64,000 nt of DNA, from contig JAFUJB010000016.1 in assembly GCA_017473865.1 (NCBI GenBank), positions 240,917-304,916 on the forward strand, given 5' to 3'. Under the pieces are notes generated by a model that ran no database searches, was not told the DNA's origin, and worked only from the letters and a program-made list of their open reading frames with translations. How positions within the stretch are numbered: the first letter of the stretch is position 1; every line of letters begins with the position of its first letter. The translations under genes were made by a program, and so were the position numbers. This document shows positions 9,030-13,838 of the stretch, piece after piece. Origin of the DNA: Clostridia bacterium (GTDB taxonomy: Bacteria > Bacillota > Clostridia > Oscillospirales > CAG-272).

Positions 9030-12000
9030 ATGAAATACGGAATCAAAAAAAGAATTTTGTCTCTTGTACTTTGCATTAGTATGCTTATACCGATGCTTAC
9101 GCAAGCAATGCCGGTGTATTCGGTTGCCGCAGATGACTTAGTAGGAGACGAACTGTCTCTGGATGTAACTTGTCCTTTTGATAGAGAAATTCCATTTGAA
9201 CTCAACGGATCTTTGGTAACAAGTAGTAGTTATCGAATTCCGTCCATGGTTACTTTGGCAGATGGCACCATCGTTGCTGCTGCTGATATCCGTTGGAATA
9301 CCACCTATGATGGCGGCGGTCTGGATACCCTGGTTGCCCGATCCACTGATGGAGGTGCAACCTGGTCGTATACTGTTGCCAACTATCTTGGAGATAACGG
9401 TAATGTGTATAACGGCAGTCACTCTACTGCATTTCTTGATCCCTCTTTGGTCGTAGCGGCTGACGGCAAGACCGTTTATATGCTGGTCGACCTCTATCCC
9501 TATGGTGTTGCGCTTAACGGTAGTGGACACACGAATCCTTCAACCGATGTTGGCTTTAATGGACAAGGTAAGCTGTTGCTGAGTGGTGACAATCACGCCA
9601 GTTATAGCTACTACCTGGATGGTAATAAAATCTACACTTCTACTGGTACTGTTGTAGATGGCTATACTATTGACGAAAAGTTCAATATTACCGGCGATGG
9701 TATTGAATCCAACCTGTTTTTTGAGGAGTCTCCCTTCAAGGTGGTTCGCACCGGATATCTGTACCTGACTTCTTCCACTGATGGCGGTGCAAGCTGGTCT
9801 GCTCCCATTTTGTTGAATAACATTAAGACCAACTCCGAACAGGCTTGCCTGGTAGCTCCCGGCAGCAGTATTACTACCAGTGATGGCACTATGATCTTTC
9901 CGGTGTATTCTTTCCACGGTGATAATAAGCCTGAGGGGAATACACAGCGTCTGAGCTTTATTTACTCAAAAGACGGTGTTAATTGGAGCAGAACAGAAGA
10001 ACTGAATCACAATTGGGCTTCTGAAGCCGCTGTGGTGGAGCTACAAGATGGCACGCTCCGTTTCTTCATTCGTAACGGTTCTCAGCATCTGCAGTATGTG
10101 GACTATACTATGGGTTCAGGTTGGGACACGGTTGTCACAATGGACAATGTCCTGACCAACTCCAATACTCAGATCTCTGCTATTACTTACTCCCGCACTG
10201 TAAACGGCGAGCAAGTGATACTGGTTTCTTGCCCCACCGGCCCTGACAGAAATGGCTCCAACTCTTCCAGTGCTTCCAACCGTTTGAACGGCAGCATCTT
10301 CGTTTTCATAGTGAGTTCTAGCGGTGATATGAATTTGGAAAACACCATTCAGGTCAACGAGAGCGACAATCAATTTATGTATTCTTGTTTGACAGAGCGA
10401 GCAGACGGCTCTATCATGATTCTCTTTGAAGATAAGGAAAATGGCTGGGGTGTCAGCGGTGGTGAAGTCAACACCTATGATCCCAGTAAGGTTACCACTT
10501 ACTACACCATGGACGGCAAGATCTTTACGGCTGATGAGTTGGGCGTGTATCCTGATCTGGATGAGATGACCAAGGTTATGCTGAAGGAAGGCGTGAACCA
10601 TGTGACGCTGTATCAGAATCCTGCGGATAGCAGCGCCGGCAGCGTTTCCGTTACGGCGGATGAGCTGGATGGCGTGTATTTGGTGGATAGCTGGTATATC
10701 GCTGAAACTACCGGCGAAAAGTGGTACCTGCTGAAGAGCTCTTATTCTCACGCTTGGCCCAGCAAATATAACGAATATCGCTTTGTTCCTGCCAGCGCGC
10801 TGGAAGAGACTGACCAGGGTCTGGCATATCCCATTGTGGACTTTACCCATCCCGCGCCCATTATGGGAACCTCTACTGTGAATCCCTCTGTGACGCCTTA
10901 TGTTGCACGGCGCTCCATGTTTGCATCTCCCGCGCAGACTTTTGCTTTGACCCGCGGTGTGCAGAAGGATGCAACCGGCTTGGAACTGAGTAAGACTGCG
11001 ACGGATAATGGGGATGGCACCTACACTATCACATTGGAAGCCTATACCACCGGTACTGTTACTGTGACTCAGACCACGAAGCCAATGGATATCGTCTTGG
11101 TTTTGGACCAATCCGGTTCAATGGCTCGGTGCATTGTATGTGGCAAGAGCAACACTTCAACACACGATACTTACACTTATACCCCTACTTATAGTGTATA
11201 CAACTATGGAACGTACTATATTAAAAATGGGAATAGCTATTCGCAAGTTTATCACTGTAACGGATCAGGATGGTCTGGGTGTACTGCTGGATGGTATACA
11301 CAAGACCATAGCGACTACGATCATGGTGGAAACAAGATAGAATATAAAACGAGTGACAACGATGACGGAATACAGTTCTATACTCGTAGGACCTCTGGTA
11401 GCGAAAAATGCGAATCCCGGCTTGAGGCACTCAAGAAGGCGGTCCAATCTTTTGTCGATGAAGTCTATAAAAAGGCTGCCGGCGCGGATGGTAAGCACGG
11501 AACGGATGATGATGTAGCGCACAGAATCGCTATTGTCGGTTTTGCAAGTACCCCTGCAAATAGTGGGAGTGAGAGTTACGGAAATAATACGGAATTGCTT
11601 TCTATTGCAGGATCGAACAGTACAGTTTCCGGAACGTCTGCTGTTGGTATTCGGTATAATCAGATTACGATTGACAACTATCAAAGTGTTTTGCAGAACT
11701 TGGGCAAAGACAGCTATGCTGCTTCTAAAACAATGCTAGATAATGCCATTGATGCGCTTACCGCATCCGGTGCAACCCGAGCTGACTTGGGCATGCTGAT
11801 GGCAGAAAATATCTACAAAAACAACCCCGTCGACCTAAATGAGCGCAACCGCGTCACCATTATGTTTACGGACGGTTCGCCCACAAGTTCCAATGGATTT
11901 GAGCTAGGTGTAGCTAACAATACAATTCAGAGCGCCCAAACCCAAAAGAAAGCCGTTGCTAACGGAGGATATGGCGCTACGGTTTATACCATCGGTGTGT

Positions 12001-13838: not shown

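Follow-up and report, generated by a model that had tools for sequence, protein, structure and literature searches.

The closest described relatives of the locus considered here are fibre operons of the TasA/BsaA type. In Clostridium perfringens, the operon sipW-bsaA-bsaB-bsaC lies next to srtB, and one of its products, BsaC (CPE0517), is a vWA protein of 70 kDa that is secreted and whose role is unknown (PMC7395162; PMC11580942). BsaA polymerises by donor-strand exchange and is locked by an N35-K74 isopeptide bond (PMC11580942), and BsaB carries an LPXTG motif in most C. perfringens strains (PMC7395162; PMC11580942). More widely, genes of the TasA family are often grouped with LPXTG, SpaA-domain, signal-peptidase and sortase genes (PMC11580942). 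In the haloarchaeal tafi, which consist of a TafC tip, a TafE adaptor, a TafA shaft and a TafF anchor, the tip protein supplies the donor strand, and TapA has been cited as filling the tip role for TasA of Bacillus subtilis (PMC11821415). Here, we analyzed a 64,000-nucleotide stretch of a Clostridia bacterium genome (GenBank assembly GCA_017473865.1, contig JAFUJB010000016.1, positions 240,917 to 304,916 of the forward strand; hereafter the window, to which coordinates refer unless another locus is named), in which the gene at 9030-13838 encodes a giant sialidase-vWA-stalk protein. This gene sits in the cargo position, a conserved one, of a bsa-like fibre operon, and the operon itself encodes a candidate for the sortase-anchored base. 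We put at roughly 55% the probability that the giant protein is a physical part, i.e., cargo or tip, of a SipW-dependent fibre of the TasA/BsaA type in uncultured, Oscillospiraceae-like gut Clostridia.

The giant gene (+ strand, ATG start) is the longest open reading frame (ORF) within the first 26 kb of the window. Its 1602-residue, 175-kDa product is identical to GenBank MBQ7969239.1, which is labelled 'MAG: exo-alpha-sialidase [Clostridia bacterium]' and derives from a 342-kb contig. As read from the translation, the N-terminus is a Sec-type signal peptide made up of MKYGIKKR, a 15-residue hydrophobic core and then ..VYSVAA; SipW-type signal-peptide models did not match the protein, and an NCBIfam scan of it gave no match. 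The protein starts at its N-terminal side with a GH33 sialidase, followed by a small beta-domain and a disordered linker; it continues with a vWA module, in which a complete MIDAS is combined with a Cys4-containing arm, and with four stalk domains of the Ig/CnaB-like kind and a conserved 20-residue tail. It ends in ...KWLDGDSWCNNIFNSISKMFK, with neither an LPXTG-like motif nor a transmembrane (TM) segment, and Pfam together with inspection of the sequence identified no Gram_pos_anchor, LPXTG, SLH, LysM, choline-binding or TM anchor. Nor could the protein be classed as a TasA/BsaA (Peptidase_M73) subunit itself, as it presented neither a TasA-like fold or profile nor a SipW-type signal. The full sialidase-vWA architecture recurred in ~59 clusters (90% identity clustering) that share 45-84% identity with the giant protein and carried no annotation in the search output. 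Judged from these sequences, the conservation of the architecture is far beyond chance.

The head of the protein, residues ~40-474 (9147-10451), was delimited as a GH33 catalytic domain by Pfam, a PDB sequence search, AlphaFold2 (AF2) modelling, Foldseek and an alignment of 82 sequences (A5). Pfam placed BNR_3 at residues 70-406 (1e-19) and also matched BNR_2 (5e-14), both above cut-off. The best match in the PDB sequence search was the intramolecular trans-sialidase (IT-sialidase) of Ruminococcus gnavus (1e-36), followed in order by leech sialidase L, pneumococcal NanB/NanC, and then NanI, NanJ and NanA. A YRIP motif at residues 68-71 is accompanied by three Asp-boxes, i.e., STDGGATWS (105-113), STDGGASWS (249-257) and SKDGVNWS (313-320). 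In the AF2 model (pLDDT 78.7, pTM 0.75), the head is a six-bladed beta-propeller with an inserted beta-domain of the Firmicute type at residues ~147-238. Foldseek with this model returned 4x47 at 9e-32 with a target-normalised TM-score of 0.71, the corresponding scores for NanA being 0.76-0.77. Each member of the catalytic set R69, D94, E332, R348, R418 and Y451 is invariant in the 82 homologues, and the set aligns with the Arg triad, the acid/base Asp and the Tyr-Glu pair of the R. gnavus enzyme, RgNanH, as well as with leech sialidase and NanB. We take R69, R348, R418, D94, Y451 and E332 to be the counterparts of RgNanH R257, R575, R637, D282, Y677 and E559, respectively. By sequence and model, the head is a GH33 sialidase with its catalytic arrangement intact and is predicted to be active.

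In IT-sialidases, the glycerol side chain is steered by a Thr that lies two positions N-terminal to the catalytic Glu. Ala330 of the giant protein aligns with this Thr in an ungapped region, with NanB and the leech enzyme as references, and in the family consensus the corresponding residue is Ser. The protein thus falls outside the Thr-defined IT-sialidase subgroup (RgNanH, NanB, NanL type), and because the position is occupied by Ala330 here and by Ser in the consensus, it is not predictable whether the head would use hydrolase or IT-sialidase chemistry, i.e., whether it would yield Neu5Ac or 2,7-anhydro-Neu5Ac. One could go further and regard the head as a lectin-like binder without catalysis, which would make the giant protein purely an adhesin. 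Pfam found no CBM40 or other lectin domain N-terminal to the propeller, which leaves the propeller as the sole sialic-acid-recognising unit, and the replacement of the IT-sialidase signature Thr by Ala330 points in the same direction. The invariance of all six catalytic residues, however, and their alignment with those of three sialidases make a purely binding head very improbable. The head is followed by a small beta-rich domain (residues 475-600; 10452-10829; AF2 pLDDT 64-91) that had no match in Pfam or in the PDB sequence search.

The vWA module (residues ~650-1066; 10977-12227) has a Rossmann-like fold, is nested in an Ig-like domain and carries a complete metal-ion-dependent adhesion site (MIDAS) formed by D693, S695, S697, T916 and D948, with the motif DQSGS at residues 693-697 and MFTDGSPT at 945-952. 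In an alignment of 102 sequences (A1), T916 and D948 were present in 102/102 and D693, S695 and S697 in 101/102. Pfam VWA_2 and VWA covered solely the half of the domain that follows an insertion and scored slightly under their cut-offs, because the vWA domain is split by this insertion. The inserted arm (residues 699-800, ~100 residues; 11124-11429) is rich in Cys, Tyr and Gly and contains the cluster C701-x2-C704, C743-x7-C751. Within A1, C701 is conserved in 94 of the 102 sequences, and C704 and C743 in 92 each; the fourth Cys is found in most, with variable alignment, and C794 is also fairly conserved. Since this is an exported protein of an anaerobe, the cluster (residues 701-751; 11130-11282) would more likely form a structural metal site, perhaps for Zn, than disulfides.

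The AF2 model of the stalk part (pLDDT 80.1) showed the vWA fold inside its Ig-like host domain, followed by four beta-sandwich domains. Three of these are Ig-like (residues ~1080-1467; 12267-13430), as defined by AF2 secondary structure and by Foldseek similarity to the Spy0128, PitB and BcpA pilins. The last (residues 1468-1578; 13431-13763) is DUF5979/CnaB-like, with Pfam DUF5979 above cut-off at residues 1474-1577 (1e-8). A recent survey counts DUF5979 among the CnaB-like domains that have an isopeptide bond of the Lys-Glu-Asn type (PMC12617251). K1477 (91/102 sequences in A1), E1530 and N1576 (both 102/102) fit this triad. With the whole stalk model, Foldseek retrieved PitA (3e-23), GBS104, Spy0128, PitB and BcpA, and a PDB sequence search with the C-terminal 965 residues gave no match. 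The same 965 residues correspond to a common stand-alone family of 940-1100 residues (5991 matches among 8000 scored candidates), whose members, where named at all, are called only 'VWA domain-containing protein'.

A preliminary description of the gene, made from the letters of the window, had proposed a secreted 1602-residue protein that joins a GH33 propeller, a vWA domain with a MIDAS motif and an inserted arm, and CnaB-like C-terminal segments. Our results agree with it on all of these points: the ORF is real and begins with a Sec-type signal peptide; the propeller fold was found together with the six catalytic residues, the RIP motif and three Asp-boxes; the five MIDAS residues are near-invariant, and the arm lies at residues ~699-800; and the CnaB-like assignment is matched by DUF5979 above cut-off and by the Ig-like domains seen with AF2 and Foldseek. 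Every motif that it listed was located, i.e., YRIP, two Asp-boxes, the MIDAS DQSGS, MFTDGSPT and the Cys/Tyr/Gly-rich insertion. The domain search that it proposed placed BNR_3, BNR_2 and DUF5979 above their Pfam cut-offs and VWA/VWA_2 just below, and the structure prediction gave mean pLDDT values of 78.7 (sialidase) and 80.1 (stalk). It had also likened the arm to those of pilus tip adhesins of the RrgA type, for which the Foldseek neighbours PitA and GBS104 speak; this analogy is structurally sound because of the AF2 and Foldseek results and the DUF5979 triad.

To place the giant gene in its context, we compared the window with nine fetched loci (among them L001 and L004-L010) that encode relatives of very different sequence or architecture. 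The operon of the window is read from the + strand throughout. Upstream of the giant gene lie a TetR-family regulator (3475-4077; Pfam TetR_N 3e-11), which is also found in L001, and a SipW-type (archaeal/ER-type) signal peptidase I (4084-4617; TIGR02228 2e-30; Peptidase_S26; SipW model 1.5e-27, below cut-off). They are followed by five TasA/BsaA-like paralogues, the candidate shaft subunits (4674-5372, 5434-6081, 6123-6728, 6760-7527 and 7564-8298), which were recognised by profiles and motifs. Peptidase_M73 matched those starting at 5434, 6760 and 7564, and TIGR04090/TIGR04088 those at 6760 and 7564; the paralogues at 4674 and 6123 matched no profile and were assigned by sequence motifs alone. 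Two further TasA/BsaA-like genes flank the giant gene at a distance of 14 nucleotides each and encode candidate adaptors, namely X (189 residues; 8446-9015; TIGR04090 4e-11), with orthologues in L001 and L004-L010, and Y (201 residues; 13853-14458; TIGR04090 3e-8), which lies directly downstream of the giant gene in 10/10 loci. In an alignment of X/Y orthologues, N34 was invariant and E47 near-invariant.

The preliminary description had placed the giant gene inside a TasA-family array, and the seven TasA/camelysin/BsaA-like neighbours have the expected features. They have SipW-type signals ending in A[YF][LF]T, and 7/7 show the donor motif [V/A]-x-N-x-F, after which come L-x-E and then a PG...K strand; TIGR04088, TIGR04090 or Peptidase_M73 matched 5/7, in some cases under cut-off. 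The last gene of the operon, Z (219 residues; 14461-15120), encodes a candidate wall-anchored base, whose signal peptide is of the ordinary kind and which bears the motif MPGDSITQK as well as a sorting signal composed of PPQTG, a hydrophobic segment and RRRK (TIGR01167 LPXTG_anchor, 19.0 bits; cut-off 15.9). Strands of the Glu/Lys type are present in Z, and the donor motif is absent. The earlier statement that a sortase motif is lacking thus holds for the giant protein itself, but not for the operon, whose last gene bears PPQTG, a TM segment and RRRK.

The gene order SipW, TasA-like genes (varying in number), X, giant gene, Y and Z was kept in 10/10 loci, with giant proteins down to 37-40% identity. 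Orthologues of Z carry a PPQTG, APQTG, APGTG or LIQTG signal, or an SLH domain instead, and a sortase gene adjoins the operon in L001, L008 and L010. In L004 (13435-14742 of that locus), the Z protein has SLH in place of the sortase signal, so that one N-terminal domain occurs with either type of anchor. Several kinds of protein are encoded in the slot flanked by X and Y, i.e., headless vWA stalks (P0184, P0143, P0139, P0183), vWA stalks with a 300-550-residue head that has no Pfam match (P0124-P0136, in loci such as L005), sialidase plus vWA (the window protein and P0012), and sialidase plus InlB/Flg_new repeats with no vWA module (P0079, P0084). Pfam identified nothing in the head regions of the alternative proteins P0124-P0130 and P0151.

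These comparisons bear on a different explanation, in which the giant protein is a stand-alone sialidase-adhesin of the wall or membrane, functionally unrelated to the TasA-like genes, and the neighbourhood is just a shared island of surface proteins. The NCBI label, which reads only exo-alpha-sialidase, would suit this explanation, and many Firmicute sialidases among the PDB matches are independent surface enzymes. The giant protein, however, has no LPXTG, SLH, LysM, choline-binding or TM anchor of its own, its gene is set tightly between X and Y, and the slot is the same in 10/10 loci, although the proteins show 37-60% divergence and their heads are swapped. We consider a stand-alone role quite improbable.

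The preliminary description had considered the combination of domains and its context to be unusual. This view has to be given up, as the stand-alone vWA family is common, the same slot exists in 10/10 loci and a vWA protein, BsaC, has been published from such an operon. Four elements appear to be undescribed, as targeted full-text literature searching turned up none of them: a BsaC-type stalk that bears an enzyme, the interchangeability of the heads, the tail with an invariant Asn that slot proteins have in common, and the invertible promoter (the last two are treated below). Literature on a sialidase-bearing pilus in Oscillospiraceae or on DUF5979 held nothing directly relevant except the isopeptide survey.

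Two short elements recur among the slot proteins. The conserved linear motif PIVDFTHPAP (residues 601-610; 10830-10859), which borders the vWA module on its N-terminal side, was considered as a universal attachment element and rejected. It was found in 92 of 193 slot proteins, exclusively in those having the vWA module, and is absent from vWA-less ones; because it travels only with this module, it cannot be the common element. In stand-alone vWA relatives, the motif is placed soon after the signal peptide. In the AF2 model, it forms beta-bridges only (pLDDT ~63) and is followed by a 37-residue disordered linker reaching to residue ~649 (pLDDT ~25).

The second element is the C-terminal tail, WLDGDSWCNNIFNSISKMFK (residues 1583-1602; 13776-13835), which is a candidate fibre-attachment element. 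In A1, N1592 was invariant (102/102), L1584 was present in 101/102 and W1583 in 100/102, and the same columns are near-invariant in A5. The motif WL-x(5-9)-N-x-[F/W] was recovered in 190 of the 193 slot proteins, vWA-less ones included, and a DUF5979-like domain plus the short tail is the part common to all kinds of slot protein. The AF2 monomer left the tail unpacked against the stalk, with pLDDT values of 53-59. Cys residues at C1590 of the tail and in strand A of Y were both present in 16/16 contig-matched pairs, all of which are close relatives.

Based on these features, we propose a mechanism in which the TasA-like paralogues would polymerise through N-terminal donor-strand exchange and thereby form the shaft. 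Asn-Lys isopeptide bonds like those of BsaA may lock this shaft, which is possible because 7/7 paralogues keep [V/A]-x-N-x-F with downstream Glu and Lys. Z would take the last donor strand and be fixed to peptidoglycan by sortase. At the distal end, the giant protein would cap the fibre by donating its C-terminal tail, in which the invariant Asn stands in a hydrophobic-x-N-x-aromatic pattern like that of the BsaA donor strand, and X and/or Y would act as adaptors. The sialidase would be held far from the cell, where it would trim sialic acid from the ends of mucin-type glycans of the host, and the MIDAS site of the vWA module would bind a ligand. The C-terminal donor-strand/isopeptide mechanism is a tentative part of this scheme and rather unlikely. 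No more probable, in our estimate, is the scheme in its full generality, i.e., a modular pilus with a SipW-processed, strand-exchanged and possibly isopeptide-locked shaft, a sortase- or SLH-anchored base, swappable tip cargo (sialidase, vWA, InlB-type repeats or other heads), the WL-x(5-9)-N-x-[F/W] tail as a donor strand with an Asn isopeptide bond, and a phase switch.

A number of points weigh against the giant protein being part of the fibre. Its attachment is something that we infer by analogy with the described systems, and a C-terminal donor strand would be without precedent in the TasA/BsaA fibre family. AF2 predicted the tail as a low-confidence helix rather than a strand. When scored with a position-specific scoring matrix (PSSM) built from 36 donor strands, the WLDGDSWCNNIFN-type tail of the giant protein ranked ~87th of ~1600 sequence windows (top ~5%). 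Tails were top-ranked only in WLSDEAVAKNVF-type subfamilies, the median rank over 191 proteins being 71. Because of this weak ranking, the likeness of the tail to a donor strand rests mainly on x-N-x-aromatic, and mimicry of a donor strand is put forward here strictly as a hypothesis. At the other end of the proposed fibre, Z matched the X/Y profile weakly (23 columns, probability 73%), which is a thin basis for homology between Z and TasA, and a search with the L001 sortase as query found no sortase gene in the window. Finally, BsaC of C. perfringens was recovered from supernatants in soluble form, as a monomer of 70 kDa, and the polymerisation of BsaA does not depend on it (PMC7395162; PMC11580942).

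The last observation is also an argument for a BsaC-like accessory, soluble or embedded in the matrix, which would be secreted free and co-regulated with the fibre and would bind fibres or host ligands non-covalently via its MIDAS, the tail serving export, folding or some other interaction. Because BsaC behaves as a soluble monomer, such a non-covalent, matrix-associated role stays alive. The pellicle of bsaC mutants is merely weakened (PMC7395162; PMC11580942), and the helical prediction and weak PSSM match of the tail fit this explanation as well. On the other hand, the tail is kept in slot proteins without a vWA module, so that binding through vWA cannot be the common mode of attachment. 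Moreover, a stalk of four or five domains of the Ig/CnaB-like kind that includes an isopeptide-type triad is typical of mechanically loaded, tethered adhesins, and the order X-giant gene-Y is strict in 10/10 loci. An accessory of this kind is possible, though on the unlikely side, and we favor a giant protein that is physically part of the fibre.

If the proposed model is correct, these gut commensals would bear, on the tip of a fibre with covalent reinforcement, both an enzyme that desialylates mucin and an adhesin that depends on metal. The foraging of glycans would then be linked to adhesion away from the cell surface and under phase variation. This would provide a testable function for BsaC-type vWA proteins, the role of which is open in C. 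perfringens, and would add a fifth class of vWA-tip pilus after those of sortase, type IV and type V pili and the VCBS/RTX-type adhesin systems, which are not pili. It would also point to a short C-terminal tag that may direct arbitrary cargo onto TasA-type fibres, which would be of practical interest in protein display. Even if only the conservative part of our results holds, the label 'exo-alpha-sialidase' is to be replaced by that of a protein with several defined domains that belongs to a conserved fibre operon.

The phase variation invoked above relates to a segment upstream of the operon. A repeat search identified a perfect 20-nucleotide inverted repeat, TTTCGCAGAGTTCCACACTC, with its left arm at 1859-1878 and its right arm at 3291-3310. 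The segment bounded by these arms contains a tyrosine recombinase gene (1950-3074, - strand; 374-residue ORF; Pfam Phage_integrase 3e-25, Phage_int_SAM_3) and a strong, near-consensus sigma-70-like promoter, TTGACA-17-(TG)TATTAT (3068-3096, + strand; 11/12 matches plus an extended -10). This promoter is directed through the right repeat at TetR/SipW, i.e., it is in the ON orientation. Three other loci that bear the recombinase, L001, L007 and L009, also have flanking repeats, ~1.41-1.44 kb apart, within switch-like segments (L001 2847-4522, L007 4397-5865 and L009 3757-5230). In L007, the recombinase is reversed relative to the operon and a strong promoter is directed away from the operon. The segment at 1859-3310 is a candidate hin-like switch, with the recombinase inside, and would have a fimS-like outcome; the fibre operon is probably phase-variable, being turned ON or OFF by inversion of this upstream segment.

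Several other features of the window were recorded. Downstream of Z lie two small Cys-rich genes (15180-15458, 92 residues; 15462-16133, 223 residues, with a weak AP2-domain match). Both are conserved behind the L001 operon, at 59% and 88% identity, and the corresponding place in L009 is taken by a gene with an AP2 domain. Helix-turn-helix (HTH) and YpsA/SLOG genes lie downstream of the operon in the window (16505-17347) and upstream of the recombinase in L001 (1669-2572), and a sortase block downstream of the L001 operon (17395-18168 of that locus) is absent from the window. The relocation of the HTH/YpsA/SLOG genes, together with the difference in the sortase block, suggests rearrangement or mobility of the whole island. 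Farther downstream, the genes at 28022-30744 encode a LicC-like nucleotidyltransferase, a choline kinase and an EamA transporter, with a glycerophosphotransferase gene nearby (24005-25249); this set looks like a pathway for phosphocholine decoration of teichoic acids. A low-GC island at 32000-36200 (0.29 vs. ~0.42 elsewhere) contains a 510-residue ORF with no Pfam match and an AAA_21 (AbiEii-like) ATPase, and is probably an acquired defence locus.

Compared with known systems, the head resembles the GH33 sialidases of Firmicutes and their kin, i.e., RgNanH (4x47), leech NanL (1sli), Streptococcus pneumoniae NanB/NanC/NanA and C. perfringens NanI. It has the same propeller with the inserted beta-domain and shares with them the RIP motif, the Asp-boxes, the Arg triad, the Asp acid/base and the Tyr-Glu pair. 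It differs from them in having no N-terminal CBM40, in carrying Ala330 for Thr and in being fused to a stalk of ~1000 residues. The best structural matches to the remainder of the giant protein are the sortase pilus tip adhesins PitA (7w6b), SpaC (6m48), RrgA (2ww8) and GBS104 (3txa), with which it has in common an Ig-nested vWA/MIDAS with inserted arms, followed by CnaB-like domains with isopeptide-type triads. In contrast to these adhesins, it has no LPXTG signal, no pilin motif and no sequence-level PDB match, its gene lies in a SipW/TasA operon rather than in a sortase-pilin islet, and it ends in the WL...N-x-F tail.

With respect to gene content, the window operon and the C. perfringens bsa operon both combine SipW, several TasA-family subunits and a secreted vWA protein, in association with a sortase gene or an LPXTG-bearing subunit and with donor-strand Asn/Glu/Lys features. 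The window operon differs in its seven TasA-like paralogues and its dedicated PPQTG protein, and the giant protein, when compared with BsaC by description and gene context, is a 175-kDa protein with a GH33 head as opposed to one of ~70 kDa with no enzyme head. The stalk also resembles Mfa5 (6tnj, 6to1), the vWA tip/accessory protein of Porphyromonas gingivalis type V pili. Mfa5 is, as we propose for the giant protein, a vWA adhesin on a strand-exchange pilus that is not polymerised by sortase, although it belongs to another phylum and involves another pilin fold and another secretion and assembly route. The logic that we propose, in which a tip donor comes first, followed by a minor adaptor, the shaft and an acceptor-only anchor, is like that of the tafi and of TapA-TasA. 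In those fibres, however, the donor strand of the tip is N-terminal, whereas the candidate strand of the giant protein is C-terminal, and the cargo here is far larger and enzymatic.

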